Source: a virus. Taken from it: 63,002 nt of DNA. Location of the stretch: the IMG/VR virus record IMGVR_UViG_3300045988_138661. The stretch is one strand, 5' to 3'. Shown here piece after piece: positions 36,232 through 54,969 of the stretch; position 1 is the stretch's first letter; each line of letters starts with the position of its first letter. The notes beneath the pieces are model-generated. The model did no database searches. It was not told where the DNA came from and worked only from the letters and a program-made list of their open reading frames with translations. Position numbers and translations under genes: made by a program.

Positions 36232-38016
36232 GTGAATAATTATAATCAACATTATAAAGAAATAAGTCCTATTGAGACTGTTAATAATATTAAAAATTTT
36301 TTAGAAGGACGCGGATTTACTTGTGTTGAGGAAGCTTTACGACAAGAACAATCAACTACTTGGAGTCTTGTATTAAATCTTGAATACAAAGGACATTTTG
36401 TGCTAAAAACTTATGGCAAAGGTGTTACAAAAGAATTCGCCAGAGCTTCTGGTTATGCGGAAATGTATGAGCGTTTTTGTAATGGAATGCACTATCTTTG
36501 TAATTCTTTTCTTTGTGCGGAAAAAATTGAATTAAATAGAAAAAATTATGGTTATTCTTTGTTTAAAAATGAAAAGCCTTTAAGTTATAAAGAGGCACTT
36601 GGAGGAGAAGATACTCTTTTATATAAACTTTTTGATCGTTTGAATAAGAAAGATAATGGTTTATTAGAGGATTATTTTAAAACTATTTATAATAATGAAT
36701 TTTTTGGAATACCATTTAAAGGAGTCAACATTAATAAAACTTTATATATGGATCCTCGTCTTCTTCAACGTTATCATGGTAGTTCGGGAATGGCAGCCGG
36801 CAATACTTTTAATGAAGCCTTAAATCAAGGTTTATCTGAAATTTTCGAGCATTATGTTTTAAGTAATTTTTATATTGATATTGATAATAAAGATTTTTAT
36901 TTTTATGATACAGATAGTATTAAAGATGAAAAATTAAAAAATATTATTAGTGCGATTAAATCTCATAATAATAACTTTTATATTATTGATATGTCAAGAA
37001 CTTATAATGTGCCTGTTATGGTAGCAATTTTGATTAATAAATATAGTGGTACTGTAGCTATTAATTTTGGTGCTTTCCCTGTATTTGAAATTGCAGTTGA
37101 GCGAGTTTGTACTGAAATGTATCAAAATTGTTTTTCTTTTGATACAAGAAAAACTTCAGTTGTATCTCCGTATTATTCTTTAGATAAAGAAGATATGGTT
37201 ATAGATGGCGGTTCTTGTATTACAAATCTTAATACTTTTCCTGAGAGTTTATTCTTGAATAAGAAATTTGTAAATACTATTAATAAAGATGTATTTTTAT
37301 CTTATACTGATAAAAATTACTCTAATGATGAAATCTTAGAGCATAATAAAAAGATTGCTACTAATATTGGAGCAGATATTTATTGTGCTGATGTATCTTT
37401 AATTGATACCGTATCTGCGATTAGTATTTATGTTGATAATCTTGACGGGCTATGGAAATCTTTCTTTGATAGATGCCAAGGAGTTAAAGAAACTGGAGAA
37501 GCAATTACTATAACTAAAAATAAACATTTGGCCATTAAAAACTATTTAAATAATAAAGATAAAGTATATGATGTAATTAAATATTGTCTTGATTATTATA
37601 ATATTACTTTTGACAAAATTGTAGATAGATTTTGTGGTTTACTTACTCATGGAGATCAATTAGTTGCTTATAATAATAAAAATATATTATTAACACCTAA
37701 TGAGATGTTTGTTAAAAACCTTTATATGGATGCAACAGGATATTTATTAGAAGATGAAGGATTTTCTTTAGATATTTCAGTTAGTTGTTTTTATACTTAT
37801 TATAAAAAATATTTAACTTTATTAGCATATGTTCACAGTAGAAAATATACTAAAGAAGATATGATTAAAATTTTCAAAGAATTTGATTATACTTTTACTG
37901 ATGAAGATTTTAAACATATTACGGATAGAAAATATTTAGTAGAAAAATGTATTTTAGAGCCTATGTATAATACATTTAGAAGCAATGATTTTAAAGAAAT
38001 GATTAAAAATTATTAA
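36232..38016 (+). CDS. YcaO-domain protein (594 aa)
   Basis: N-terminal YGKGVTKEFARASGYAEMYERF matches YcaO signature GKG.T...A..SA..E..ER. Confidence 0.6.
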   Translation: MNNYNQHYKEISPIETVNNIKNFLEGRGFTCVEEALRQEQSTTWSLVLNLEYKGHFVLKTYGKGVTKEFARASGYAEMYERFCNGMHYLCNSFLCAEKIELNRKNYGYSLFKNEKPLSYKEALGGEDTLLYKLFDRLNKKDNGLLEDYFKTIYNNEFFGIPFKGVNINKTLYMDPRLLQRYHGSSGMAAGNTFNEALNQGLSEIFEHYVLSNFYIDIDNKDFYFYDTDSIKDEKLKNIISAIKSHNNNFYIIDMSRTYNVPVMVAILINKYSGTVAINFGAFPVFEIAVERVCTEMYQNCFSFDTRKTSVVSPYYSLDKEDMVIDGGSCITNLNTFPESLFLNKKFVNTINKDVFLSYTDKNYSNDEILEHNKKIATNIGADIYCADVSLIDTVSAISIYVDNLDGLWKSFFDRCQGVKETGEAITITKNKHLAIKNYLNNKDKVYDVIKYCLDYYNITFDKIVDRFCGLLTHGDQLVAYNNKNILLTPNEMFVKNLYMDATGYLLEDEGFSLDISVSCFYTYYKKYLTLLAYVHSRKYTKEDMIKIFKEFDYTFTDEDFKHITDRKYLVEKCILEPMYNTFRSNDFKEMIKNY

Positions 38017-41017: not shown

Positions 41018-42336
41018 CTTCTTCGATTCCTTCTTCTTCTTCTTTAAGAACGGGGGATATATTAAATTGTCCTTATAGTGGATCTGCTAAATCAATTACT
41101 CTTCCAAAAGGCACTTATAAATTAGAATGTTGGGGAGCACAAGGTGGAAATGCAGGTTATTATAGTTATGTTCATTCAACCCCTAATGGAGGAAAAGGTG
41201 GATACTCTACTGGTGTAATCACTTTATCTTCAAGTGTTATAGTATATCTTTATACCGGAGGACAAGGAGGAAGTACTATCGGGAATAAGCTAGACTAGAA
41301 TTCAGTAGCTACAGCACCTGGTGGATTTAATGGAGGTGGCATCGCTAATCAAATGGGAGCCGCTGGTGGTGGTGGAGCTTCTGATATTCGCATAGGCCAA
41401 GATTCTCTCTATGCTCGTATAATCGTCGCTGGAGGCGGTGGTGGTGGAGGCAATGCGAGTAGTTCTACTTTATTATCTTGTGGCGGAAATGGTGGAGGAA
41501 CTACTGGTGGAACTCCACCTAATTAGCACAATAATAGAACCCCAGGAAAAGGAGGAACTCAAACTGGAATAACAGCTAGTCGTTCATCATCAATTTCTGC
41601 GGGATTTGGTAATGGAGCTGGTGGTACGGGAGAAAATCTTCGTGGAGCCGGTGGCGGTGGCTGGTATGGTGGAACTATGGGTGAAAATTCAACTGGCGGA
41701 GGTGGAGGTTCTGGTTATGTATATACTTCCTCAACTGCTTCTAATTATCCATCTGGTTGCTTATTGAATAGCACTCATTATCTTAGTTCTGCTTCTACAA
41801 TAGCTGGCGACACTTCATTCACTTCTCCAACAGGGTCATCTGAAACAGGTCATAGCGGAAACGGGTATATAAGAATTACTATTTAGTCTATTGTTAACTG
41901 GGCTTATTCTACTGTATCAATTCCTGCTCCTACTTATAGTAAATAGGATACTTCTTCTTGGACTTTATCTCCGAGTGCTTGCAGGTATTTTTCTTTTACC
42001 CCTACTATTTCAGGAGATTTTATTGTTTATTCCAATTCTTCAATAGATACTTTTGGCTATTTAACATCAAATATTGTTTCTCTTAATAGTAGTGGATAGC
42101 CTTCTTCTAATATTTTAGCTAGTGATGATGATTAGGCAAAAAAATATGGTGGATCTGGAAGTAATTTTGGTATTTGTTATAAAGTTACTGCTGGAACTAC
42201 TTATTATATATATGTTAAGCCTTATCGTGATAGTACAGCAAATAGTTCAGTATATTTAACTTATTATATGGCTCATCCTGACAGTAGAGTATATGTAAAA
42301 ACAGATAGTACAACATGGAAATTAATAACCAATTAA
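40999..42336 (+). CDS. glycine-rich repeat protein with C-terminal PPC-like beta domain (~445 aa, several in-frame TAG)
   Basis: RBS aaggagga; track ORFs 40978 and 41677 in same frame; ends TAA 42334. Confidence 0.55.
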
Positions 42337-42508
42337 AAAATTTTTTGACATTTTAAAAAAAATAATATATAATATATTTATAAAATAAAGAAAGACCTTT
42401 ACAGCAAAAATAACTTCCAGAATAAACTAATGATTAAGTCATAATCCTTTAAGATTAAAATAATGGTTCAACTCCATTTTCCGGACAAAGTTAAGGTCTT
42501 GTTTTTAT

Positions 42509-42583
42509 AGGCGTCTGGTGTAACGGTAGCATGCGGGTCTCCAAAACCTTGCGGTGTGGGTTCGAATCCTACGACGCCTGCCA
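42509..42583 (+). tRNA. tRNA-Trp (CCA)
   Basis: cloverleaf by hand: acceptor aggcgtc/gacgcct, anticodon loop ctCCAaa, T-loop ttcgaat, CCA encoded. Confidence 0.7.
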
Positions 42584-42667
42584 TTTTAGACAAAAAGAAC
42601 TTTTTTGATTTTATTAAAAATATATAATATAATATATATAGAAAGTTGAGAAAGGAGAAAATAAATA

Positions 42668-42850
42668 ATGAATATTGAAGTTGGTAATTCTTATTGTTTT
42701 GTCCCTTATCGTGGTCGTTGTTATCGTAGACAGTATCTTAAATGTACTGTTATTCGAGTATTAAATTATCAGATTGAAGTCCTTGATGAGCATGGTGAAA
42801 AATGGCTTCTTTCAGAAGATGATTTAATGCCAATTCAAAGACCTTATTGA
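42668..42850 (+). CDS. hypothetical small protein (60 aa)
   Basis: consensus promoter-leader directly upstream. Confidence 0.5.
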   Translation: MNIEVGNSYCFVPYRGRCYRRQYLKCTVIRVLNYQIEVLDEHGEKWLLSEDDLMPIQRPY

Positions 42851-43002
42851 CATTTTATAAAAAATATTATATAATATTTATATAAGATGAGGAAAGAAAA
42901 AAGAAAATAAAAAACTTTGGGTAAAAGAGAAAAGTTGATTTTTTAAAAAAAATATAATATAATAAATATATAAAGTAAGGATTTTAAAAGTCCTTCTTTT
43001 AT

Positions 43003-43550
43003 GGGAGTGTAGCTCAGTTGGTTAGAGCACGCGGCTGTTTACTTGACCTTATCATTTTCTTATAAAAAAATGAAATGAATAGTAAACAAAAAGGTAATAT
43101 TACCGAGCTTGAAACAATGTTAGCATTTATGAAACTTGGTTATAATGTTCTTACTCCTTACGGAGATTGTGAGCGTTATGATTTTGTGGTTGATGTAAAT
43201 GGTAAATTTATTAGAATTCAAGCTAAAACATCGCGAACCGAAGATGAAGGAGCTTCTTTTATTTTTTCTGGTAGAAGTTGCCATAGAAAAGATGGAAGAA
43301 TAGTTCATCATCAATATACTAACGAAGAAATTGATTACTTCGTAACTACTTTTAATGGAAAATGTTATTTGATTCCAGTGGAAGAGTGCGGAGCAGATAA
43401 AAGACTTCGTATTCTTCCACCTAAAAACAATCAAGTAAGAGGTATTACTTGGGCGAAAGATTATGAGTTGGAGGAAGTAGTAAGAAAATGGTAAGCTGAT
43501 GTGTAAGCAACCGCGGTTTGTCGTGAGTTCGAGTCTCTCCTCTCCCGCCA
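43003..43550 (+). tRNA. tRNA gene (Asp-GUC if spliced) split in the anticodon loop by a ~469-nt insertion
   Basis: 5-prime half gggagtgtagctcagttggttagagcacgcgg + 3-prime half ccgcg..gagttcgagtctc..ctctccc g cca; anticodon stems cgcgg/ccgcg complementary. Confidence 0.5.
43075..43494 (+). CDS. ORF inside the tRNA insertion; possible PD-(D/E)xK-type nuclease (139 aa)
   Basis: YDFVVDVNGKFIRIQAK resembles D..(D/E)xK core; location inside a tRNA gene. Confidence 0.35.
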   Translation: MNSKQKGNITELETMLAFMKLGYNVLTPYGDCERYDFVVDVNGKFIRIQAKTSRTEDEGASFIFSGRSCHRKDGRIVHHQYTNEEIDYFVTTFNGKCYLIPVEECGADKRLRILPPKNNQVRGITWAKDYELEEVVRKW

Positions 43551-43790
43551 TTGGGGCGTTAACACGGATTTTGTAAGTTTAAACTACCACCGATCGAAAG
43601 AGTATGTGGCTTGCGGAAAACGCCCGACTAAATATAAGGAAGCGAAGTAAAACTTATTGTGAAATAGTAGCTATACTCACATTAATCAAGGCTATGGGTT
43701 CTGGGAATCCAAAAGAGTAAAAGTTGGTTCGAGTCCTAACGATTGACGAAGTTCGAATCTTCGCGATGTGGGTTATAAAACTCTTTATTT

Positions 43791-43867
43791 GCTGGTGTAG
43801 CCGAATTGGCATAGGCGAATGATTTAGGATCATTAATCTGAAGGTTCGAGTCCTTTCTCCAGCACCA
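43791..43867 (+). tRNA. tRNA with anticodon UAG (Leu by anticodon) but short variable loop; A73
   Basis: acceptor gctggtg/ctccagc, anticodon arm aatga-tttagga-tcatt, T-loop ttcgagt. Confidence 0.55.
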
Positions 43868-43954
43868 GTCCCTCCCTGGGAATGCGTTGAAGGCTTGCGA
43901 ACTTTGAACGCAGGTGGTTGGCAACTCCATCTATACATAAATAAGTTGCGTTTT

Positions 43955-44033
43955 GGGCTTCGGGACTGCATGGCGTGGTCGTCTGTCTTGCACACAGAAA
44001 ATCAGGTGAGTTCGATTCTCACGAGGTCCACCA
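43955..44033 (+). tRNA. tRNA-Ala (UGC)
   Basis: G3-U70 pair present, anticodon loop cttgcac, T-loop ttcgatt, A73 CCA. Confidence 0.55.
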
Positions 44034-44433
44034 TTATATGGTTATATGGTGTAAAGAGTAAGCACGGCGGTTAAATAAACCGCAAATTTAGGAGCATTGC
44101 CTAATATAACCGATTATATGATTGGTGATAAAAGCAGCCAGAAATATTATCTTATTAATTAAAACTTAATACAATATACTAAACGATATAATAGATAAGG
44201 TATATTAATAAAATTTATATACAATAAGATAATATATACAAAATGCTAATAGTGATTTTGGTTCCAGCGCTAGGAAAGTTTTTCCCACTACGAAGAGAAA
44301 ATTTGAAGAGTTAGCGTAGTCTTGATAATTATGTCTTAAATAATTATCCCTTTTTGGCTCATAACCTTTTTTTGGATAAAAAATTATATTATATTTACCG
44401 TGATGCCGCGGAGGGACGGCCGCCCTAAAGTGC

Positions 44434-44600
44434 GATTAAGATTAGAAAGAAGTTGGAAGATCTTCTTAAAACTTCCATTAGATTAGAAAGAAGTTGGAAG
44501 ATCTTCTTAAAACTTCCATTAGATTAGAAAGAAGTTGGAAGATCTTCTTAAAACTTCCGTTAGATTAGAAAGAAGTTTTGAGGATTCTTCTTAAAAATCC
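44434..44600 (+). repeat. tandem array of four ~39-nt hairpin-forming repeats (gattagaaagaagttggaagatcttcttaaaacttccatta x3 plus diverged 4th)
   Basis: direct repeats read in sequence; each contains palindrome gaagatcttc within gaagtt..aacttc. Confidence 0.7.
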
Positions 44601-44610
44601 TCTTAGTTAT

Positions 44611-44698
44611 GCTTTGATGGCGGAATTGGCAGACGCGATCGGCTCAAACCCGATTATCCGAATGGATGGTGAGAGTTCAAGTCTCTCTCGAAGCACCA
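44611..44698 (+). tRNA. tRNA-Leu (CAA), class II
   Basis: acceptor gctttga/tcgaagc, anticodon loop ctCAAac, long variable arm atccgaatggat, T-loop ttcaagt, A73 CCA. Confidence 0.7.
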
Positions 44699-44878
44699 GT
44701 CACCTCCTTTAATTAGTAGGTTAATGTGAAAATGATAAGCATTTGTGAGTATTGACGGCGGTGGAGTGGCGACCATCGTTAACAAATATCGCTTCTTGGT
44801 TGGTCTTTTAATCTTTTGACATTTTATAAAAAATAAGTTATAATATTTATAGAAAGTTAAGAAAGGAAGATTTAAATT

Positions 44879-44986
44879 ATGTATAATGATTACTATGAAA
44901 GCTATGCTTGTGAGATTCAGAGTGATGAATATGCTGCTTATCAGGATCTTTCCCTTTATGAAGATGAGGATGAATACCGTGAATAA
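44879..44986 (+). CDS. small acidic peptide (35 aa)
   Basis: ATG at consensus distance from promoter-leader aagga; alternative overlapping frame 44886..45134 exists in ORF track. Confidence 0.35.
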   Translation: MYNDYYESYACEIQSDEYAAYQDLSLYEDEDEYRE

Positions 44987-45138
44987 AAGTTATATGAAAA
45001 AGAACAAGGAAGAGCTTAATGAGTATCTTCAATTGTTTCGGCGCAGAGGATTTAAAGTTCCTGCGAAGAAAGGCAAAGGCTCATTTAAGCGAAAACAAAA
45101 GCACAAAAATCAAGATTATGATAGATGTGCTTAAATAT

Positions 45139-45212
45139 GGCCTCATCTACTAATTGGCTTAGGTGGCAACCCTCTCAAGGTTGAGATGTCAGTTCGAATC
45201 TGGCTGAGGTCA
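45139..45212 (+). tRNA. tRNA-Glu (CUC) candidate
   Basis: acceptor ggcctca/tgaggtc, anticodon arm caacc-ctctcaa-ggttg, T-loop ttcgaat; D-stem needs G-U pairs. Confidence 0.45.
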
Positions 45213-45282
45213 GGGATATAAATTCTACAACCTTCACGTGGTATATCCTGTTTTTACTAATGTAGAATAAAATAAATAATAT

Positions 45283-45360
45283 GCTCCTGTCGACAAGTGG
45301 GCTTAAGTCACTAGCCTTTCACGCTAGAGTCGTTGGGTTCGAATCCCACCAGGAGTACCA
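45283..45360 (+). tRNA. tRNA-Glu (UUC)
   Basis: anticodon arm ctagc-ctttcac-gctag, T-loop ttcgaat, CCA. Confidence 0.6.
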
Positions 45361-45364
45361 TATG

Positions 45365-45439
45365 GCCCTGGGGGCAGTCAGCAGAGCCGCCAGCCTGTCA
45401 CGCTGGAGATAGCGGGGTCGGCACCCGTCGGGGTCGCCA
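45365..45439 (+). tRNA. GC-rich tRNA-like element, possibly tRNA-Asp (GUC) with atypical T-loop gtcggca
   Basis: acceptor ggccctg/cggggtc, anticodon arm ccagc-ctgtcac-gctgg, G73 CCA; ~70 percent GC vs ~35 percent surroundings. Confidence 0.4.
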
Positions 45440-45599
45440 TACGTTGGCATCATTCTTATGTCTATGTTAGTGCGCAGGCGGTCGCACAAAAGCCTCTACA
45501 AAAGTTGGCCATTTGATGAGGTCTATTAAGAATTTTGGGACGATGGGTTAGAAAGTCCAATAGATATAATGGTCGCGAATATTATATCTATCCCATTTT

Positions 45600-45675
45600 C
45601 GGTCAATAGCTTAATTGGTAGAGCATTGTTCTCATAAGACAAGGAATATTAGTTCGATTCTAATTTGACCGACCA
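45600..45675 (+). tRNA. tRNA-Met (CAU), elongator-type
   Basis: acceptor cggtcaa/ttgaccg all Watson-Crick, loop ctCATaa, T-loop ttcgatt, CCA. Confidence 0.7.
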
Positions 45676-45676
45676 T

Positions 45677-45755
45677 TGCGGAAGAGTGAAACGGATTTAT
45701 CATGCCAGGCTCATAACCTGCGCGATATTGGGTTCGACTCCCATTTCCGCAACCA
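45677..45755 (+). tRNA. second CAU-anticodon tRNA (Met or Ile2-lysidine type)
   Basis: acceptor tgcggaa/ttccgca, loop ctCATaa, T-loop ttcgact, CCA. Confidence 0.6.
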
Positions 45756-45787
45756 TAAGACACACACAGCAATCATTTTCTATTGAA

Positions 45788-45860
45788 AATATTTTAGCTC
45801 ATTTGGTAGAGCATTTGTCTGTTAAACAAACTGTAGTTGGTTCAAGTCCAACAAATATTT
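45788..45860 (+). tRNA. tRNA-Asn (GUU), all-AU acceptor stem, no encoded CCA
   Basis: aatattt/aaatatt acceptor, D-arm gctcatttggtagagc, loop ctGTTaa, T-loop ttcaagt. Confidence 0.6.
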
Positions 45861-45905
45861 CATTTGTGTCTTGTAAATTAAAATAATCCAAAAGGAGATA
45901 TCTAA

Positions 45906-46109
45906 ATGAAGTTTAAGTTTAAGCCCGGCGACAAGGTTTATTCTAAGAAGTACGGTAAGGGCTTTTGCCATCAGGTTGATGAACAGGATAAGGATTTTAC
46001 TTATGATTTCCATTTTAAGGATAGCACAATCATTTGGATGTCCCGATATGATGGTGAGCGTTATGTAAAGTTCCGCAGACCGAAGAACGTGGAACCCGCA
46101 AACGCATAA
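45906..46109 (+). CDS. hypothetical basic protein (67 aa)
   Basis: RBS aaaaggagat. Confidence 0.5.
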   Translation: MKFKFKPGDKVYSKKYGKGFCHQVDEQDKDFTYDFHFKDSTIIWMSRYDGERYVKFRRPKNVEPANA

Positions 46110-46323
46110 TTTATCTTTCCTTTCTTTTTGAATAATTAAGGCGCTAACAGCAAACTTTAAAACATCAATGTACGAAATACATATGCTTAGGATTGTTTAT
46201 AGCGTCTTGTTCTATTTATATTGTTGATGTAGTACGATAAATAAAATATCACATTCTTTTAGTCAATTTTAAAGGAAGAATGACTACGTGGAGAATCGGG
46301 AATCGTAGCAATATAAATATTAT

Positions 46324-46399
46324 GGGTGGATAGCTCAGCTGGTAGAGCGTAGGATTGAAGATCCTAGCGTCGGCAGTTCGATTCTGTCTCCGCCCACCA
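46324..46399 (+). tRNA. tRNA-Phe (GAA)
   Basis: gggtggatagctcagctggtagagc D-arm, loop ttGAAga, T-loop ttcgatt, A73 CCA. Confidence 0.75.
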
Positions 46400-46808
46400 A
46401 AAGACCAACAAATGAGGAACCTCTTTGCTGCTCGAGGCTGTTGGAATGCCTGTTAGAAAGGCTACTCTTCTATATATTTAGATATATAGAAACAAAAGAC
46501 TATACAATAGAGAGAGTCTTTTACATCTAGTTCATTTTCTTACTTATCTTTCTGTTTGATTTCCCCTTTCGTTTGATATATAGATTGTTGTTTTCTCTCA
46601 CTTCCATAGAAATGAATTGTTTTTCTACTCTCTATTTTGTTTCATAAAATTAAATAAAAAAGGAGGATTATCTGATATGTTTAAAGATGTTGATGATTTG
46701 ATTTTCGGCGATGAGCGTGAATTTTGTCCTAGCGAACGATAAGCGCGGTCGCCTACCTAATGCTACCATAGGCTGGTTCCAAGTCCAGAAAAGCAGAGGA
46801 GGTAGAAT

Positions 46809-47045
46809 ATGAAAAATATTTTAAGTTATAAAAATCCTTGTTTTAGCGGTCAAGAAATTCTTGATTGGGCTAATTATCAAGTAAATAATAAAACTTCTCA
46901 TTATAAACAGGGATTGAGAGTTTTAAATTTATTTGGTAATATTAAACCTGATAGAAAGTATTATATTTTTAGTAATTATCGCACTTGGCATAGTTATTGT
47001 GGATATAGTATTAAGCATAAACTAATCATATATAGGTATAAATAA
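46809..47045 (+). CDS. hypothetical protein (78 aa)
   Basis: RBS agaggaggt. Confidence 0.45.
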   Translation: MKNILSYKNPCFSGQEILDWANYQVNNKTSHYKQGLRVLNLFGNIKPDRKYYIFSNYRTWHSYCGYSIKHKLIIYRYK

Positions 47046-47046
47046 T

Positions 47047-47134
47047 GGAGCTATGGTGTAATGGTATCACAAAAGCCTGCTAAGCTTTCCTACCTTTATA
47101 GGTAGTCCGCGTTCGACTCGCGGTGGCTCCGCCA
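47047..47134 (+). tRNA. tRNA-Ser (GCU), class II
   Basis: loop ctGCTaa, long variable arm ctacctttataggtag, T-loop ttcgact, G73 CCA. Confidence 0.7.
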
Positions 47135-47161
47135 TTAAATTTTAAATTAAGAGGATTAAGT

Positions 47162-48301
47162 ATGAATATTGTAAATGCTGGTTCTCGCTATCAGATTTAT
47201 GGCGAGGACGTTAAGACTTATAAGCGACTTCCGCTTATGTCTTTTGAAATCTGTTTTAATAAAATGGCAGGTTTTTATCTTTCTTCTCGTCCAGACCTTG
47301 CGGTCAATGAGGAAAAGATTTATGGTAATCACGAAGTTAAAGTCAATAAAGTGCTTAATTCTTTTAAGCATTCAGACCGTAATCTTGGTGTTATTTTAAG
47401 TGGGCAGAAGGGTATTGGTAAGTCATTGTTTGCTCGTATTCTTTCTCATCATGCTATTGAAGATGGTTATCCTGTTCTCTTGGCTAATACTTATATGCCT
47501 GGTATTGCGGATTTTATTTCCAGTATTGAACAGGAAGTTGTAATCATTTTTGATGAGTTTGAAAAGAATTTCTCTAATAGCCCTGACGATCATGCGGGCC
47601 CCTCTCCGCAGGAGGAAATGCTTTCTCTTTTTGATGGTCTTGATAATGGTAAGAAGCTTTTCGTTATTACTTGTAATGAAGTTGATCGACTTAGCACTTA
47701 TCTATTGAATCGGCCTGGTCGTTTTCATTATCATTTTAAGATCACTTATCCAACAGAGGAAGAGATTGTAGAATATCTTACTGATAAGGTTAAGCCTAAA
47801 TATGCGAGTGGTATTAAGGATATTGTGAATTTTTCTCGTACTACCAATATGACTTATGATTATCTTCGCGCGATTGCTTTTGAACTTAATCAGGGTTATG
47901 GTGTGGCAGAAACTCTTGAAGACCTTAATATTTCTCAAACTTCCAATGTTCGTTTCAATATCACTATTACTACGGTAAATGGTGATGTGTATAATACCTA
48001 TGGTGTTTCAGTTAATTTGTTTAGCAATCCTAATGCCAATCATCAAAGATGGTATGATGGTTATACCTCGGATAGTAAGACTATTCGTTATGCCTTGACT
48101 CCTGAATCAATTAAGATTGAAAAGGGTATGATTACGGCCGATCCGAAAAAGGTTGAAATTTACATTGATCCTGACGACTTTTGGACGATCAGCAATGAGG
48201 AAAAGCGTAAGGAAGCTATCGAAAAGGCTAAAAATGAGCGCGTGATTAAGTCTGTTGTTTTAACTAAGGTCGCAAATACTATTGAACAGTATCTTTATTA
48301 A
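47162..48301 (+). CDS. AAA-family ATPase (~380 aa)
   Basis: Walker A GQKGIGKS, Walker B VIIFDEFE, second-region-of-homology NRPGRFHYHF; start moved from 47123 (overlaps tRNA) to ATG after RBS aagaggat. Confidence 0.65.
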   Translation: MNIVNAGSRYQIYGEDVKTYKRLPLMSFEICFNKMAGFYLSSRPDLAVNEEKIYGNHEVKVNKVLNSFKHSDRNLGVILSGQKGIGKSLFARILSHHAIEDGYPVLLANTYMPGIADFISSIEQEVVIIFDEFEKNFSNSPDDHAGPSPQEEMLSLFDGLDNGKKLFVITCNEVDRLSTYLLNRPGRFHYHFKITYPTEEEIVEYLTDKVKPKYASGIKDIVNFSRTTNMTYDYLRAIAFELNQGYGVAETLEDLNISQTSNVRFNITITTVNGDVYNTYGVSVNLFSNPNANHQRWYDGYTSDSKTIRYALTPESIKIEKGMITADPKKVEIYIDPDDFWTISNEEKRKEAIEKAKNERVIKSVVLTKVANTIEQYLY

Positions 48302-48304
48302 CGC

Positions 48305-48345
48305 GACGGCCGATGTAAAGTGAATATACTTTACATCGGCCCCTT
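48305..48345 (+). terminator. rho-independent terminator (ggccgatgtaaagtgaatatactttacatcggcc + T-run)
   Basis: long perfect inverted repeat. Confidence 0.75.
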
Positions 48346-48441
48346 TTGACTTTATAAAAAAAATATTATATAATAAATATATAAAAAATAAGAAAATGCT
48401 TTTGTGATGGAATTGGTATACATACTAGACTAGGTGAAATT

Positions 48442-48597
48442 ATGAATTATACCATAGATTAGTTAATCGCTGAATGGAAAGATTAGATTGCTTCTATGAA
48501 GTATTATAATTATAGTCCAGAGATTATTGATAAAAATGAGTAGATTCTTACTTATTTCCAAGAGTTAAAGGAGTATAAAAATGGAAATCGAACGTAA
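48442..48597 (+). CDS. small protein (~51 aa) with three in-frame TAG
   Basis: MNYTID*LIAEWKD*IASMKYYNYSPEIIDKNE*ILTYFQELKEYK reads as plausible protein if TAG=Q. Confidence 0.35.
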
Positions 48598-49099
48598 GTT
48601 TGATATTAAAAATATTCCTTCTTGGATGAAGGAAAAAAGTGTTCGTCATAAGAAAATTGAGCAAATCTATCTTATGATTGACTTTGATAATGATGGTAAA
48701 GTGCTTGAAGAAATTCGAGCGCGGAAAGCTATTAATCTTAAAACCAATCAAGTTGATTATAAGATGACTTATAAATATGGTGATGGTCTTTCTCGTGAAG
48801 AAATTGAAACGCCAATTTCCTCAGATTTCTATGAAATGATTAAGAAAACTCGACATGAAGGTTATAATCCTATTATTAAGGATTATTACATGGTTGAAGA
48901 TATTTACAATCCTAATCGTTTGATTGAAATTAGTGAAGTTGATGGGAAATTTTGCTATGCAGAAGTTGAATTTCCTGATGAAAAGACTGCTAATGAATAT
49001 ATCTGGCCTTATCCTGAAATCTTAGGGCCAAAAGGTGAAATGACAAATCAGCCTAATGAACGAATGTCAGTTTATTGGTTGAAATCGCGGGTTTCTTGA
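48581..49099 (+). CDS. CYTH / triphosphate-tunnel metalloenzyme family protein (172 aa)
   Basis: N-terminal MEIERKF (ExExK signature of CYTH domain). Confidence 0.55.
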   Translation: MEIERKFDIKNIPSWMKEKSVRHKKIEQIYLMIDFDNDGKVLEEIRARKAINLKTNQVDYKMTYKYGDGLSREEIETPISSDFYEMIKKTRHEGYNPIIKDYYMVEDIYNPNRLIEISEVDGKFCYAEVEFPDEKTANEYIWPYPEILGPKGEMTNQPNERMSVYWLKSRVS

Positions 49100-49110
49100 C
49101 TCGCCGATCT

Positions 49111-49259
49111 GGGGTGGTAAGTCAAAGGCTAGACTAGGCGACTTATCTGTGAGTAGTTTAAATGGTAAAATAACGGTAGTACTACGAAGATTTAGGTTCA
49201 AGGCCTAATTCACAGGCCAAATCGCTCAATGGTGAGTTCGAGTCTCCCTCGCCCTACCA
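49111..49259 (+). tRNA. tRNA gene split in anticodon loop by ~70-nt insertion (Trp-CCA if exon junction follows group-I-like U/G rule)
   Basis: 5-prime half ggggtgg ta agtc aaaggcta gact a ggcga ct; 3-prime half tcgct caatg gtgag ttcgagt ctccc tcgccct a cca; stems ggcga/tcgct pair. Confidence 0.45.
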
Positions 49260-49371
49260 GTGTCATGGTATTTCCTTTCTTAACTAAATAAAGACTCATA
49301 CAGCAACTTTTTTGCTTACAATAAGCGCTTAATGTGGGATTAAGAAGAATGAAGAGTCTTGTAGCGAATTT

Positions 49372-49448
49372 GTCCCCGTAGTTCAGTTGGATAGAACAAA
49401 GGATTTCTAATCCTTGTGTCGGGCGTTCGAATCGCTCCGGGGATGCCA
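49372..49448 (+). tRNA. tRNA-Arg (UCU)
   Basis: D-arm gttcagttggatagaac, loop ttTCTaa, T-loop ttcgaat, G73 CCA. Confidence 0.7.
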
Positions 49449-49508
49449 AGGGTATATTTCATTAATAAAAGTCATTGAAACCTTAAAAATATTAAGGAAG
49501 GTGATTTG

Positions 49509-50366
49509 ATGAAGATATATTCTCCAAGTAATTATTCATATATAAAAATTATTGAAATTCCAAAAGAAGAAATTAGCAAGTTGGATATGGCGTTATGCGC
49601 TCAACCGCGTTAGACTTTAAAGCAATACTATGATAGTTGCGCGGTTAAACCTACTATTTTAACTAATGGTGGTTTTTTTAGCATGGATAATGGTGGCACT
49701 TGTTTTAATTATATGGACGATGGCGTAATCATTAATTCCACTTCTTCTTATAAAGAAGGTTTTGGTATTATTAATGGTGAATTGAAATACGGTATAATTG
49801 GAACAGAAAAGTTTGAAGATTTTGTTAGCGGTTATCCAGTATTGATTAAAGCTGGTAAAAAAGCTCAAATTACTTATGCTAAAGAGTTAAATTATAAAGC
49901 TCGTAGAACAGTATTAGCATATAATAAATTTAATATTTATTTAATTGCTATTGAAAAGCCAGGTATGGCATTTACAGAAATGTAGAATTTACTTTTAGCA
50001 TTAAAAGTTGATTATGCAATTAACCTTGATGGCGGTGGTAGCACAAAAGTTCTTCATAATGGAACTTGTATCACTAAGGATTGGGGCGATCGCGCAGTCG
50101 ATAATGTAATGGCTATTTATCTTAAACCGCAAATTATTTATCGCGTTCAACTTGGTGCTTTTGGATCTAAATCCAACGCTGACGCTTTCTTATTGAAAAT
50201 TAAAGCATTACCTGATACTATTGGAGCAGGTTATAAAAATGCTTATATTCGTAAAATTGGTAAGTATTATAAAGTTCAAGTTGGTGCTTTTTCTGTCAAA
50301 GCAAATGCTATAAAAGTAATTAATGATTTAAAATCAAAAGGTTATAATGCGTTTTTAACTACTTAA
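49509..50366 (+). CDS. cell-wall-associated protein: phosphodiester-glycosidase-like core (NLDGGGS) plus two C-terminal SPOR repeats (~286 aa, two in-frame TAG)
   Basis: ATG 49509 after RBS aaggaaggtg; track ORFs 49683 and 50109 are in the same frame separated by TAG; YRVQLGAFGSKSNA and YKVQVGAFSVKANA SPOR-like repeats. Confidence 0.5.
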
Positions 50367-50561
50367 TAAAACTTTTTGACATTTTAAAAAAAATATTATA
50401 TAATAAATATATAAGTTAAAGACATTAACAGCAATTTTGATTGCATGCCAAGCCGGAAGTGTAGGTTCGATTCCTTTCATCCCCTGCCATTATATAGGGG
50501 ATTAGTTCAATGGTAGAACGCCGTAAATCAATGGTGTCTTGTTCTAATAAGGAGAAATATT

Positions 50562-50768
50562 ATGCTTTGTTATCGTGTTGCGGTTCAAAATAGCCCTTTA
50601 TATTTTCCCGTAGATTTCAAATTCAAAGAAAATGCTGAAATTCTTTGTAATTATTTATCCAAAAGAGATGGAAGAACTGATTATTATATTGCAGAAATTT
50701 TCTATGAAATTGGTCTTCCGGATTATCAAGATGAAAGAGTTCTTTTACTTCTTTCTCAAAATAAATAA
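50562..50768 (+). CDS. hypothetical protein (68 aa)
   Basis: RBS aaggagaa. Confidence 0.5.
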   Translation: MLCYRVAVQNSPLYFPVDFKFKENAEILCNYLSKRDGRTDYYIAEIFYEIGLPDYQDERVLLLLSQNK

Positions 50769-50845
50769 TGTTTGGTAGCTCAGTTGGTTAGAGCACCGTG
50801 CTGATAACGCGGGGGTCGAGGGTTCGAGTCCCTCCCAGACAACCA
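50769..50845 (+). tRNA. tRNA-Ile (GAU)
   Basis: D-arm gctcagttggttagagc, loop ctGATaa, T-loop ttcgagt, A73 CCA. Confidence 0.7.
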
Positions 50846-50922
50846 TAAGACCAGAAGTAACTGCAATTAAAACATCTGACTTAAAATCCGACTCCTTTAA
50901 CAAGGTCTGGTCTTGTTTATAT

Positions 50923-50998
50923 CCGGGTGTAGTTCAGTTGGAAGAACGCTTGATTTGGGTTCAAGAGGCCGGACGTTCAAGTCGTCTCACTCGGACCA
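50923..50998 (+). tRNA. tRNA-Pro (UGG)
   Basis: D-arm gttcagttggaagaac, loop ttTGGgt, T-loop ttcaagt, A73 CCA. Confidence 0.7.
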
Positions 50999-51191
50999 TA
51001 AGACACATACAGCAATTCTTTCATTAGAAAGGTATACAGGTTCAAATCCTGTAAACTCCAATTGGGGTTTTGGCGAAATTGGTTAACGCACATAACTTAA
51101 AATTATGTTTCTAATGTGTCTAGTTTGAAATAACTTTTTTGATTTTTTATAAAAAATATAATATAATATATATAGAAAGTTAAGAAAGGAA

Positions 51192-51395
51192 TTGAAAAAA
51201 ATGAAAAAGATTTCTGTTGATTTTGGTTGTTATTATAATTCCATTGATAATAAGGAGCTTGTAAAAGCAATTACTCGTGCTTCCAATCCCAATGCGGAAG
51301 ATATTATTCTGTATTGTAAGATTGATGATGGCGGTTTTGCTTCTGCTCCCATGTATATGCTCGAAAAGGATTTTGTAGCAACTTTCATTAATTGA
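51192..51395 (+). CDS. hypothetical protein (67 aa), SVDFG N-terminal motif
   Basis: consensus promoter-leader upstream. Confidence 0.5.
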   Translation: MKKMKKISVDFGCYYNSIDNKELVKAITRASNPNAEDIILYCKIDDGGFASAPMYMLEKDFVATFIN

Positions 51396-51404
51396 GTTGC
51401 TTAT

Positions 51405-51480
51405 ACGGGATTAGCGCAGCTGGTAGCGCATCTGACTTACATTCAGGAGGTCGTGGGTTCGAGTCCCTCATCCCGTACCA
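51405..51480 (+). tRNA. tRNA-Val (UAC)
   Basis: acceptor acgggat/atcccgt, D-arm gcgcagctggtagcgc, loop ctTACat, T-loop ttcgagt, A73 CCA. Confidence 0.7.
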
Positions 51481-51730
51481 CCGAACGCAGGATTGGTTCG
51501 ATTCCAATAATCAGCTGTAATTAGTGTAATGGTTGAGCACAGCGTTCGCGTCTTAAATATATCAAAGACACCACAAACTGCGAATTTTCTATAACAGAAG
51601 ATACAGAGATATTGTTTTACCAATAATTTTTGATTGCCTATTGAAGGTGTAGTCTGTTTGGGGTAAGAGAGAATTAATCGACAAATAGATGAAATGAATT
51701 GATTGAAATTCTTTGGTGTCTTGTTTTATA

Positions 51731-51928
51731 CGGCCGTCGCCAAAATGGTAAGGCACAGGACTTTCTCAAAATCAGTTAAATGAGTTATATAATATGACGG
51801 GGTTAAGTAGTATTATATAAGTTCTGTTAGTAGGCTTCCGGTTCTATAAAACCGAGAATGTTGGTGCAAGTCCAACTTTTGAGCCCTGACTCCTGCATCT
51901 GCTGGTTCGAGTCCAGCCGGCCGTGCCA
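51731..51928 (+). tRNA. tRNA gene split in anticodon loop by ~120-145-nt insertion (Gln CUG/UUG or Glu UUC depending on junction)
   Basis: 5-prime half acggccg tc gcc aaaatggtaa ggc a cagga ct..; 3-prime half ..tcctg catct gctgg ttcgagt ccagc cggccgt g cca; all stems complementary. Confidence 0.45.
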
Positions 51929-52061
51929 CCAGAGTTCTGCTAAGTTATATATTTAATTAAGAATTTGCTACTCTGAAAGAATATATAATGAATAAAAAAT
52001 TGGGTCTAAATAACGCAGATAATCCGCTCTGGACCATAAATTCAATTTAAGGAGAAAAATT

Positions 52062-52181
52062 ATGATTTGTCGCACTAAAGAGCATTATGAAAATCGCATT
52101 GCGAAGTTGTATTCCCATAGTGAAGTTATGAATCAGCGCCTCATTAATAAGATGAAGCGAAAACTCCGTAAGTTGAATTAA
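52062..52181 (+). CDS. small basic protein (39 aa)
   Basis: RBS taaggagaaaaatt; unlisted small ORF directly upstream of suppressor tRNA. Confidence 0.3.
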   Translation: MICRTKEHYENRIAKLYSHSEVMNQRLINKMKRKLRKLN

Positions 52182-52190
52182 GGAGTTTAT

Positions 52191-52262
52191 TGAGGGGTAG
52201 CATAGCGGCAAATGCGCTGGTCTCTAAAACCAGATAAGTGGGATCGACACCCACCCCCTCCG
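52191..52262 (+). tRNA. suppressor tRNA, anticodon CUA (reads UAG); Gln-like features
   Basis: acceptor tgagggg/cccctcc (1-72 mismatch), U8 A9, D-arm gcat-agcggcaa-atgc, anticodon arm ctggt-ctCTAaa-accag, 4-nt variable loop, T-arm gtggg-atcgaca-cccac, G73; no encoded CCA. Confidence 0.65.
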
Positions 52263-52496
52263 CGGTGCTAAAAACAAAACCTCCTCGTGGTAGCACTGGG
52301 TAATGCTAATTTGTTTATAAAGGTAATAAAGGCAATATGTATAAAAGTCATTGATAAGTCCTTTTATACGATAGGAAGTAGGATTAGAAGCGTCCATCTT
52401 TTAAAGAGCGAAATGCGGCGATCGGGTATTTCCTTGGTCCAGTAGACACACTATCGGAGGTTGTGGGTTAACCTAATTAAAACCCTCAAAATAAAA

Positions 52497-52859
52497 ATGT
52501 TTGATATTTATTTAAATTATTGCGAAGAAATTTTTGGTGGTTCTCATAAGTTTACCAAAAATGGCCTTGGTTATGATGTTTTAAATATTCATAATAATCG
52601 AGATAATTTTAAAATTATACTTGCGGATAAAGTGCGGTTTGGAGAATATACTTTATTTCATCGTGCTTATGGAGCTAGACTTGATGGTTCTTATGAGTGG
52701 CATGTCCAATTAAAATCTAAATATTTAGATTTTCTAATTTATTGTGCTTTCGCGCATGATTTTAATAAATATAATAACATTCCTTATAATCGAGAAGATT
52801 ATTGGCGTTTTATTAAAGATTATAAGAAATATATTTCGGAGATTAACGTGATAAGGTAG
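52497..52859 (+). CDS. hypothetical protein (~120 aa); 3-prime end overlaps tRNA-Tyr
   Basis: ORF track 52461..52859; ATG 52497 preferred; terminating codon is TAG, so true end uncertain under recoding. Confidence 0.3.
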   Translation: MFDIYLNYCEEIFGGSHKFTKNGLGYDVLNIHNNRDNFKIILADKVRFGEYTLFHRAYGARLDGSYEWHVQLKSKYLDFLIYCAFAHDFNKYNNIPYNREDYWRFIKDYKKYISEINVIR

Positions 52860-52926
52860 ACACCCCGGTCTGTAAAACCGGTGCGCTTAGTCGCTCGAGT
52901 GGGTTCGATTCCCTCATCTCCGACCA
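52837..52926 (+). tRNA. tRNA-Tyr (GUA), class II
   Basis: acceptor cggagat/atctccg perfect, loop ctGTAaa, long variable arm gcgcttagtcgc, T-loop ttcgatt, A73 CCA; two extra nt between acceptor and D-stem. Confidence 0.6.
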
Positions 52927-53445
52927 AAGTATTTGGCAGTATACTTTATAGTAATCGCAAAAACTGCTTATCGTACCTGAGTAAGTGGCAAGGTCGTAGA
53001 TGGCGACGGCGTTGTTTATTTAAAACGATAGGTTTCTTTTCCTAACAGGCTGAAGAAAAGACGTTAACCACAACGAAAGAGTGATTAAGAATAGGTAAGG
53101 AATATTTATATTAAAGGTGATTTGGCACTATTGTTAATTTTAATGTTGATCGGTGCGGAATAAGTAAGATTTCCTATTTAAATCTAACCAAATTGAATAC
53201 TGAAAACAAACCGAGGAAATGCTCTTAAATGGAGTTTGATTGTTCTTTGATGGTGGAAGGAAGCGTAAGGCAACCTGCGGGTTAGCGTTTGCGGAGTAAA
53301 AGAACATGATGACAAAATTTAAGAGCATTTTTGTTTGCTTAAATAAGAGCAGTTAATGTGGCTTGACCGGCATCAAGCGCAAGGACCGAAAACCGCAATT
53401 TAAAATGCTTTTAGAAATTTTTAAGATAAAAAAGGAGGAAATTAA

Positions 53446-54969
53446 ATGTCATATTTTAATGCTAGTTTGGACTGTGAAAATGGTACAATATATTGCTCTG
53501 GATCAGTAGATCCTCCTGTCATTACATCAATAGAACTTTATATTCGTATTAAAATAAATGGTATAGACTCTGGTTATATTTATGTTGGAAGCGGTTCAAA
53601 CAGAATACGTTTTAATGAAGAGATTCCAAATTATGATCATGTTAACTTTGATAGTTATAATGATTATGAATTAATAGTATTAGATGGTGATTTATATGAA
53701 TTAGGTGCTTATACTCCTTGCACTGGTTCTTTTTATGCTTCATCATCGGGAGGAGGAGGAGGAGGCGGTGGATCGGGCGGAACTGATCCAATGTACGCTT
53801 GTTATGATGTTACAACTGGAAATTATATAAACGGTTGGACGCAAGGTAGTTTTGGTATGACCGCTCCCTCTTATGGTAGTAGTTATACTTATTTAGGATA
53901 TTGCCCTGGTAATTCAGAATAGGAATGTTTAAATTATTATACTAATAATGGCACTACATGGAGTCAAGATTCTACTTATATAGTAGGAGATTGTAGTTAT
54001 GTTATATTTTTTTATAGACAAAATTTATCTTATGCTTATATAACTTATTATTATAATGGAGGATCTGGTAGTTATAATAATGGAGCTCAAAATGCTTTTT
54101 CAAGTACAACTCAACCTTGGAACATATATTTAGATACTCCTTCGCGCTCTGGATATAATTTTTTAGGATGGACAACAGACAATTCATCAGCTTATGTGAG
54201 TAGTCCTATACAAGCATATAATGGTTCAACTTATACATTATATGCTATGTGGTAGCGAATTTATTATTATACCTATATAACCTATCACTATAATGGAGGA
54301 TCTGGTAGTTATAGTGATGGATAGCAAGTAAGTTATTCAAGTGTCAATTCTAGTCGAACTATTACTTTAGATACTCCAACAAGAGCAAATTATACTTTTT
54401 TAGGTTGGGGAACCAGTTCTTCTTCTGCTGATATTGGCACACAACTATAGGTGTCATCTACAAGCACTGTATATAAAACTTTATACGCAATTTGGCGTAG
54501 AAATACAATTATTGTAACTTATAATGCAAATGGAGGTTCTGGTGGACCCGGATCATAGACTGTTAATACCAATTCTTCTTTTAATATAAATGGATCTAAT
54601 TTTCCAACAAAGTCTAATTATATTTTTAAAGGATGGTCTACATCGTCTTCAGCAAAAACTGCAACTTATAAAAAAGGAGCAACACCTTCAATTTCTACTG
54701 GTACATCTAATATAACTTATTATGCAGTTTGGTGGCCTGTATTTACTTGGAAAGATTATTCCAGAAGTGAAGCAAATACTTTCGCAGGATATATAAATAC
54801 TTATCTAAGTAAATCAATCTCTTCTATTGATGACACAAATCCTCTGCGGTTAGTTATTTGGTTTAATGCAATAGCTACGGCATTAAACAATAATACTAGA
54901 CTTGCATCAGGAGACGCAAGTTTTAAAGCACAATTAGATACTCTATTAACTGCATATAATAATTATTAA
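53446..54969 (+). CDS. surface-binding / receptor-binding candidate with three Listeria-Bacteroides (Flg_new-type) repeats (~507 codons, about six in-frame TAG)
   Basis: RBS aaaggaggaa; repeats GYNFLGWTT..YTLYAMW, NYTFLGWGT..TLYAIW, NYIFKGWST..YYAVW; ends TAA 54967; terminator hairpin 54977-55010. Confidence 0.55.

Follow-up and report, generated by a model that had tools for sequence, protein, structure and literature searches.

An anticodon-paired hairpin element with an endonuclease gene in phage tRNA genes: a candidate mobile intron without a ribozyme, possibly spliced by proteins

The DNA analyzed here, hereafter the window, is a stretch of 63,002 nucleotides (nt) from the IMG/VR virus record IMGVR_UViG_3300045988_138661. 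It consists of AT-rich, phage-like DNA and holds about 20 tRNA genes, arrayed at 42.4-52.9 kb. The subject of this work is the gene at positions 43003-43550, which ARAGORN called as one tRNA with a 469-nt intron when introns were allowed, and which was missed both by a default ARAGORN run and by the Rfam tRNA model. Its anticodon loop is interrupted by an intron-like element that contains an open reading frame (ORF) for a putative homing endonuclease, and whose ends are predicted to pair with one another as well as with the anticodon (Table 1). The original prediction, made from the letters of the window, had proposed a tRNA gene split in its anticodon loop by a 469-nt insertion; this is confirmed by the ARAGORN call and by homologues embedded in tRNA genes at related loci. 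Homologous ORFs, with 30-97% identity, were found in 35 viral contigs (mostly of 100-190 kb) and nine contigs of metagenome-assembled genomes (MAGs), nearly all of them embedded in a tRNA gene, and the split gene is therefore no chance arrangement.

The exact insertion site could be established from alleles with and without the element. The cultured Enterococcus phage EFP01 carries a homologous element (463-nt insert, protein 58% identical), and its exons are identical to the uninterrupted genes of EFDG1 and phiSHEF16, with a junction that falls unambiguously between nt 36 and 37 (...GGCTGTT/TTTTCTGACC...AGAAAGC/AACCAG...). Moreover, about 60 related Schiekvirus genomes are without the 463-nt insert, the locus being annotated there as tRNA-Asn-GTT. 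Where the 5' exon stops in the window was set by analogy with the EFP01 and EFDG1 alleles and from an exon-junction 22-mer: joined at 36/37, the window exons give a 22-mer that is present in 13 uninterrupted phage tRNA-Asn genes, and the anticodon arm of the window tRNA is identical to that of 13 intact phage tRNA-Asn genes. In the same junction search, the Asp-type junction k-mer had no occurrence in uninterrupted phage tRNA genes. The exon-junction k-mer of the window is GCACGCGGCUGUUAACCGCGGUUUGUCGUGAG, and its 3' part is specific to the window tRNA.

ARAGORN itself placed the junction of the window gene at 35/36 (CUGU/...G/CAA), reading Asp(GUC). The original prediction had arrived at the same junction, and at a mature loop cuGUCaa, by applying the group I rule that the exon ends in U and the intron in G. 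This Asp reading was ruled out by the intron-less alleles, by the junction k-mers and by the intron-less tRNAs of the carrier phages, whose Asp tRNAs have GTTC/GAAC-type D stems and mostly C38, and whose Asn tRNAs look like the interrupted genes. With the junction at 36/37, the window gene is, by these comparisons, a tRNA-Asn(GUU) with the mature anticodon loop CUGUUAA, and the span of the insert, given earlier as 43039-43507, has to be shifted one base rightward. After splicing in silico, ARAGORN recognized the window gene as a 79-nt tRNA-Asn(gtt); two U-U mismatches are present, and the variable loop has 7 nt.

The non-coding part of the insert amounts to 49 nt, with 35 nt before the ORF and 14 nt after it. 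The ORF product matches the Pfam family PF11645 (PDDEXK_5) over its full length (residues 1-132, E=1.4e-31, 109.8 bits, with a gathering cut-off of 26.1 bits) and resembles the I-Ssp6803I structure 2OST (E=2.7e-10), in agreement with the earlier assignment to the PD-(D/E)XK family of I-Ssp6803I. Residues E11, D36, Q49 and K51 are invariant among 15 homologues and align with GD...D...QVK of 2OST; in view of the PD-(D/E)XK fold, we take them to be catalytic. The ORF is intact in 25 of 27 elements, and its product is presumed to act as a DNA homing endonuclease and to cleave DNA. I-Ssp6803I is said to leave 3-nt 3' overhangs.

Overall, about 40 homologous elements, of 434-486 nt, were found at 36/37 of tRNAs, and they have invaded genes with nine anticodons (GUU, UUU, UUG, GAU, UUA, UGC, AGU, UGU and GUC). 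At locus L015, three paralogous copies sit in three different tRNAs, each of them matching its own anticodon. Occupied and empty alleles occur at the same site in related genomes, and the element lies in unrelated contexts and in various targets while being better conserved than its surroundings: intron identity between phages is 79-87%, whereas that of the flanks is 48-63%, which corresponds to unalignable, essentially unrelated sequence. This contrast, the Schiekvirus alleles and the existence of free-standing homologues together make up the signature by which we identify it as a homing element. Free-standing PF11645 genes, as more distant homologues, were found beside intact tRNA genes in Salmonella phage (Kuttervirus) PM10 (tRNA-Asn; L139, 1105-1692) and Pectobacterium phage My1 (adjoining tRNA-Ile; L039, 1501-1968), and also by tRNA genes in a Synechococcus phage, at MAG loci L106 and L112 and at L140; overall, the flanking genes are tRNA-Asn, tRNA-Ile and tRNA-Arg/Val. 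Such genes are probably the source of the intron-borne gene. A megablast of 5 kb against GenBank phages returned no near-identical phage record, and cultured relatives surfaced at the protein level.

ORF-less copies of the element were sought with the 15-mer of its 3' end, which in viral contigs returned only the known carriers and chance or unrelated matches. The 15-mer CTGATGTGTAAGCAA occurs in the unrelated viral contigs L044, L056, L061, L064, L090, L092, L098 and L103, where it is followed by a conserved AGTTTTGATCTAGGATTGA...GGGGTTTGGGG stretch lying outside any tRNA; this stretch may represent some other conserved gene or element.

The two ends of the insert can form a hairpin that reaches into the exons, as judged from minimum free energy folds, an RNAalifold consensus and counts of pairs. 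Pairing of nt 34-36 with the three nucleotides at the intron's 3' end is seen in 26 of 28 distinct junctions, G.U pairs that exist only in RNA included. Thus, anticodons GUU, UUU, UUG, GAU and UUA are matched by introns ending in AGC, AAA, CAA, AUC and UAA, respectively, UGC by GCA or GUA, and AGU, UGU and GUC by AUU, AUA and GGC. The U33-A37 pair is also present in 26 of the 28 junctions, and the pair between intron positions +1 and -4 in all of them. Across the family, helix P-a runs on for 3-7 further pairs, and helix P-b, of 10-16 bp (15 bp in the window), closes off the ORF. Between the two helices, an internal loop YUGAC/CUGAUGU is found in the Asn/Lys clade but not in the Ile and Gln clades, and it cannot therefore be a universal catalytic element. 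By eye, the loop could resemble a box C/D kink-turn (G.A/A.G/U.U/G-Y with 43043-43046); anything beyond resemblance was discarded, as the bulge is 1x2 instead of 3 nt and two clades are without the loop.

The fold is further supported by covariation. With 17 distinct sequences, RNAalifold recovered the P-a/P-b fold, 14 of its 18 pairs showing compensatory changes (within P-b, CUCAC/GUGAG in L010 and CUUAAAGAC/GUCUUUAAG in L015), and the anticodon-stem pairs covary too. Paired cells amount to 95.7%, as compared to 77% in column shuffles (none of 500 reached the observed value) and only 33-45% when the partners were slid by 1-3 columns. The whole precursor also folds better than its shuffles (z = -6.7). 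The tracking of the anticodon by the intron 3' end is the strongest argument for a function at the RNA level that involves the exons.

Table 1. Coordinates of the interrupted tRNA-Asn gene in the window, of its predicted hairpin, and of a second family of anticodon-loop inserts
Feature	Locus	Position	Strand	Description
5' exon, tRNA-Asn(GUU) nt 1-36	window	43003..43039	+	ARAGORN; acceptor, D arm, anticodon stem CGCGG, C32 U33 G34 U35 U36
Insert, 469 nt, intron-like element	window	43040..43508	+	UAC...AAGC; first base U, last base C
ORF, 139 aa	window	43075..43494	+	PD-(D/E)XK homing-endonuclease homologue; PF11645, I-Ssp6803I family
3' exon	window	43509..43550	+	A37 A38, anticodon stem CCGCG, 7-nt variable loop, T arm, acceptor, G73, CCA
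P-a, 5' strand	window	43036..43042	+	U33, G34 U35 U36, intron +1 to +3 (UAC); predicted to pair with 43503-43509
Internal loop, 5' side	window	43043..43047	+	UUGAC (CUGAC in most relatives); like box D CUGA
P-b, 5' strand, CUUAUCAUUUUCUUA	window	43048..43062	+	predicted to pair with 43481-43495
P-b, 3' strand, UAAGAAAAUGGUAAG	window	43481..43495	+	overlaps last ORF codons and stop UAA at 43492-43494
Internal loop, 3' side	window	43496..43502	+	CUGAUGU; like box C UGAUGA
P-a, 3' strand	window	43503..43509	+	intron -6 to -1 (GUAAGC) and A37; AGC is the predicted partner of the anticodon (G-C, U.G, U-A)
Second insert family	window	51730-51928		insert 51765-51887
Second insert family	L037	541-739
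Second insert family	L009	4069-4190
Second insert family	L009	827-1045
Second insert family	L028	3882-4030
Second insert family	L032	4622-4742
Second insert family	L105	3180-3336

The sequence-based tests for a group I intron all failed. Intron_gpI (RF00028) gave no match in 42900-43800 at E<=10, across the tRNA array (42000-53500) at E<=5, or, at E<=1, in ten diverse loci with a homologous element; within the element, no known ribozyme was matched either (E<=10), and the Rfam scan at gathering threshold showed no group I intron in the window. This covariance scan had been suggested in the original prediction. Since the insert ends in C, it has no omega-G, and over the 28 distinct junctions the last intron base is C in 19, A in eight, U in one and never G. 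The nucleotide before the 5' splice site, nt 36, is U in 22 junctions, C in three, G in two and A in one, and its partner is intron nt -3, at the 3' end (mostly as U-A), instead of a 5' guide sequence. What fails, in sum, is the catalytic core P3-P9, the omega-G, the U(-1) in P1 and the amount of RNA, a group I core taking about 180 nt or more. Group I identity was rejected on the Rfam result in the window and ten relatives and on the failure of the omega-G and U(-1) rules. The original prediction was right in its remark that the RNA outside the ORF is too short for a conventional group I core.

It might still be supposed that the RNA splices or cleaves itself, either by a group I ribozyme lying within the ORF or by a new small ribozyme formed from the internal loop. 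We consider this very improbable, even though the precursor folds so much better than shuffles, the loop is conserved in the Asn/Lys clade, and twister-like and hepatitis delta virus (HDV)-like small self-cleaving ribozymes are found in these tRNA arrays, with an end chemistry that the ligase RtcB would fit. The fraction of synonymous differences among 25 homologous ORFs lies between 0.24 and 0.50 in every 8-codon window, and such a flat profile leaves a ribozyme core overlapping the ORF unsupported; a ribozyme concealed in the ORF was rejected on this ground. The internal loop, besides its absence from two clades, lies at least 3 bp from the 5' splice site and at least 6 from the 3' one, and the pairing of nt 36 and the missing terminal G speak against self-splicing as well. 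In addition, the endonuclease-bearing group I introns of tRNAs in a recent survey are all longer than 500 nt (PMC13011429). Of the options left by the original prediction, an unusual small intron gained support, while an ORF overlapping the ribozyme did not.

An archaeal-type bulge-helix-bulge (BHB) intron, cut by an EndA-like splicing endonuclease, shares some traits with the element (see below) but is hardly to be expected here, and it was also rejected. Neither single-sequence nor consensus folds contain the 3-nt bulges: both predicted splice sites lie in a continuous helix of Watson-Crick or G.U pairs, the sole irregularity near them is the C32/A38 mismatch, and the central segment is of 3 bp, not 4. 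Moreover, the hosts are bacterial (the cultured carrier infects Enterococcus), none of about 30 window ORFs had an EndA-like Pfam match, and we know of no EndA in bacteria. By these tests, all of them made on sequence, the element is neither a group I nor a BHB intron.

Based on these results, we lean towards the view that the element is a mobile, endonuclease-encoding hairpin intron without a ribozyme, lying at 36/37 of a phage tRNA-Asn(GUU) and spliced by proteins. In the transcript, the intron AGC would pair with the anticodon GUU, and U33 with A37, so that the anticodon stem continues into a long irregular hairpin made up, in this order, of P-a, the internal loop and the 15-bp P-b, from which the ORF is looped out. 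A protein endonuclease would recognize the extended anticodon helix and cut after nt 36 and after intron nt -1; both sites lie on the 3' side of the segment formed by the anticodon and the intron end, which corresponds to a 3-nt 3' stagger. The product would be a tRNA nicked at 36/37, which an RNA ligase would reseal, possibly one of RtcB type encoded by phage or host. At the DNA level, the ORF product would cut intron-less tRNA genes in the anticodon region, by which the element would spread between phages and tRNA species. That splicing takes place at all, that it depends on proteins, and that a nuclease and a ligase act in it, we infer from the comparisons above. Indirect support comes from a topology reminiscent of enzymatic tRNA splicing, namely that of the archaeal BHB motif but with 3 bp for 4 and no bulges, from the RtcB encoded by EFP01, and from the other ORF-less, non-group-I inserts in anticodon loops of these phages. 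A wider claim could equally well prove right or wrong: that phages harbor a class of hairpin introns, neither group I nor BHB, that lie at 36/37, pair with the anticodon and are removed by a protein nuclease and an RNA ligase. In the boldest version of this claim, the intron's own PD-(D/E)XK enzyme would serve for homing as well as for splicing, its cuts having one and the same 3-nt stagger in the target DNA and in the RNA helix.

Several observations weigh against a spliced intron. EFP01 encodes an RtcB (PF01139, E=3e-59), but the protein is common to its close relatives, so that it is not specific evidence; a scan of viral contigs with it reached only close relatives. With the EFP01 protein as query, tblastn found no RtcB in the 63-kb window or in the fetched loci, and RNA ligase, EndA and RNase are all absent from the Pfam and PHROG matches of about 30 window ORFs. 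We know of no bacterial enzyme whose cuts in the two strands of an RNA helix are offset by a 3-nt 3' stagger, and the spliced junction itself is a prediction. To these have to be added the two U-U mismatches and the 7-nt variable loop of the window tRNA, and its divergence from a close relative: between the window and L002 (2929-3474), the introns are 97% and the flanks 97-98% identical, whereas the exons share 84% (5') and 69% (3'). This could mean relaxed constraint, or possibly exon replacement during homing. Some copies are decaying, L029 being degenerate in its 5' half and both L020 and L029 having an in-frame TAG. Finally, phage tRNAs are usually dispensable, and intact exons elsewhere could reflect recent homing and not function.

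The alternative is an insertion that is selfish and never spliced: a homing endonuclease gene that used to stand alone would have moved into the site it targets, the anticodon loop, and put a dispensable phage tRNA out of action; the disrupted tRNA or pseudogene envisaged in the original prediction lives on in this form. We regard it as rather unlikely, albeit the most serious of the alternatives. The free-standing homologues by tRNA genes of cultured phages and MAG contigs, the decaying copies, the mismatched pairs and diverged exons of the window gene, and the failure to find a splicing nuclease or ligase among the window ORFs tested are all in its favor. The helix would then serve the endonuclease mRNA, through end protection, RNase III-type processing or control of translation, and not tRNA maturation. 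However, a helix that serves only an mRNA need not extend into the exon, and yet the insert end tracks nine anticodons with pairs that include G.U, possible in RNA only. Furthermore, length and architecture are tightly conserved, and the cloverleaves formed by the exons are no less intact than in neighboring tRNAs: after splicing in silico at 36/37, 26 of 27 genes were called as a tRNA of the expected identity, and flagged stem positions averaged 0.85, as compared to 1.34 in 256 intron-less tRNAs of the same loci.

If the element is a protein-spliced intron, as we propose, the splicing endonuclease might be the intron-encoded PD-(D/E)XK protein itself, a tetramer cutting the RNA strands 3 bp apart, as in DNA, with an RNA ligase sealing the exons. 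This we hold to be improbable. In the RNA helix, as in the DNA target, nt 33-36 would be met by the enzyme in base-paired form, and the predicted splice sites show a 3-nt 3' stagger around the anticodon; the latter coincidence follows largely from the anticodon pairing itself and is not independent evidence. Also in its favor, no ORF-less copy of the family was found in the 15-mer search of viral contigs. We know of no PF11645 member that cuts RNA, A-form RNA is unlike B-DNA, and RtcB, the only ligase found, cannot join the 5'-phosphate and 3'-hydroxyl ends left by a metal-dependent nuclease. Archaeal EndA reportedly has a two-plus-two subunit arrangement. I-Ssp6803I is a tetramer in which two subunits contact the DNA and the other two are structural (PMC3384342), and EndA also has a PD-(D/E)XK fold, although its active site is different (PMC3424549). 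In addition, PF11645 insertions at 33/34 (I-Ssp6803I; PMC13011429) or at 36/37, as here, occupy the two flanks of the anticodon.

A second family of inserts, ORF-less and of 44-143 nt, interrupts the anticodon loops of phage tRNAs, either at 35/36 or at 34/35 (Table 1). The window copy splits a tRNA-Gln(UUG) that ARAGORN called Glu. These inserts start with the 5' strand of a 7-bp helix, whose 3' strand is adjoined (one base off in L032) by a hairpin of 3-5 bp with a T-loop-like loop of 7 nt, UGCAAKU in most copies and UUCAACU in L032. They end in NCCA in four of six distinct copies (ACCA in three, TCCA in one), and in CCCT in the window. The family has no Rfam match and is too short for group I; its layout is that of an acceptor/T-arm minihelix, on which RNase P and the processing of tRNA 3' ends look likely to act. 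In L016 (4367-4471), a tRNA-Gly(UCC) gene (Rfam tRNA, 50 bits over 102 nt) is interrupted at 36/37 by a simple hairpin of 31 nt. This insert is perhaps related to the hairpin intron, though ORF-less, and its splice sites would lie 2 bp apart. The occurrence of other ORF-less, non-group-I anticodon-loop inserts in the same phages suggests a general route of excision.

A different kind of insert was found in L010 (4833-5138), where a tRNA-Leu(UAA) gene is interrupted after U34 by 218 nt ending in G; this looks like the classical tRNA-Leu group I intron and, if it is one, true group I and ribozyme-less introns coexist in these phages.

The tRNA arrays contain further features. At 46754-46804, directly upstream of a 78-aa ORF and a tRNA-Ser gene, the window has a Twister-P1-like ribozyme (41 bits, with a gathering score of 67; local E=3e-8) with the core nucleotides kept, and a similar match lies in L032 (2546-2597). 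At 52191-52318, a suppressor tRNA(CUA), named 'Pyl' by ARAGORN, is immediately followed by a match to the HDV-F-prausnitzii ribozyme (27.7 bits, E=0.08), and a match of the same kind (38 bits) comes directly after the intron-bearing tRNA-Asn of L016 (3473-3540); together, the CUA tRNA and the HDV-like matches suggest stop-codon recoding and ribozyme-made tRNA 3' ends. A second 'tRNA-Asn(GTT)', very AT-rich and without CCA, lies at 45788-45861 and also occurs in L001 and L004, and a tRNA-like gene at 42416-42486 has a 6-nt anticodon loop with a two-base 'tt' anticodon according to ARAGORN. ROOL RNA (265-341 bits) is located beside the tRNA arrays of EFP01 and another carrier (L022 3930-4516; L024 4611-5235 and 5918-6219), and L024 also carries a tmRNA gene. 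Elsewhere in the window, ORFs at 29587-30246, 36232-38016, 56991-58229 and 44886-45134 matched Radical SAM, YcaO, Mtd_N and, weakly, ArfA, respectively. The Radical SAM and YcaO-domain ORFs are possible peptide-modification genes, the Mtd_N protein is a tropism determinant of the type targeted by diversity-generating retroelements, and the weak ArfA-like match is a small ORF within the tRNA array.

To our knowledge, every tRNA intron described in bacteria and phages is a self-splicing ribozyme of group I or, rarely, group II, and a full-text literature search turned up no account of phage or bacterial tRNA genes with introns outside group I. Splicing of tRNA introns by proteins is considered an archaeal and eukaryotic hallmark. 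The closest known system is the tRNA-fMet group I intron of Synechocystis PCC 6803, which encodes I-Ssp6803I and, like the window element, combines a PF11645 protein with an anticodon-loop site next to the triplet and presumed homing. It has, however, 655 nt, a 150-codon ORF, a ribozyme core and the U(-1)/omega-G rule, and is located at 33/34 (PMC13011429), whereas the window element has 469 nt, 49 of them non-coding, lies at 36/37, ends in C and gives no group I signal. Group I introns of Patescibacteria, at 35/36 of tRNA-Asn and tRNA-Asp (PMC13011429), are alike in invading tRNA-Asn, in being missed by standard tRNA finders and in having their junction mis-assigned by ARAGORN; they differ in being self-splicing ribozymes of 184-894 nt, verified in vitro and mostly without endonuclease genes, the few that have one being longer than 500 nt and of HNH types (PMC13011429).

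As for the BHB introns of archaea and eukaryotes, processed by EndA/Sen and RtcB, they resemble the element in having no ribozyme, in the pairing of anticodon and intron, in the predicted staggered cuts 3' of a short helix, in a site adjacent to the canonical one and in an ORF looped out of the stem; a ligase of the RtcB family is encoded by one carrier phage. Homing endonuclease genes are also carried by archaeal rRNA BHB introns. The window element differs in its lack of bulges, its segment of 3 bp instead of 4, its site at 36/37, its bacterial hosts and its PD-(D/E)XK instead of LAGLIDADG enzyme. Finally, free-standing endonuclease genes occur in phage tRNA clusters, as is the case of T4 SegB (PMC2330249), and share with the element the genomic niche and, in PM10 and My1, the protein family. 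Nevertheless, they sit between tRNA genes and leave them intact, whereas the window gene lies inside the anticodon loop and is flanked by arms that can pair both mutually and with the anticodon. On condition that it is spliced, the element would be categorically new.

If this reading is true, bacteria infected by these phages would contain an unrecognised pathway of RNA cutting and joining, enzymatic tRNA splicing would exist in the bacterial world, and RtcB and other bacterial or phage RNA ligases would have a natural splicing substrate. The reading is directly testable, since EFP01 is in culture and has dozens of intron-less relatives. Interrupted genes of this kind would explain tRNAs that annotation pipelines miss in large gut phages, and they have a bearing on the way in which introns and homing endonuclease genes come together. 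Should the ORF-encoded enzyme make both cuts, in DNA and in RNA, the element would be a living model for the origin of BHB introns and EndA; and even if it is never spliced, it would still represent a novel lifestyle of a homing endonuclease gene, which resides within its target and pairs with the target's RNA.

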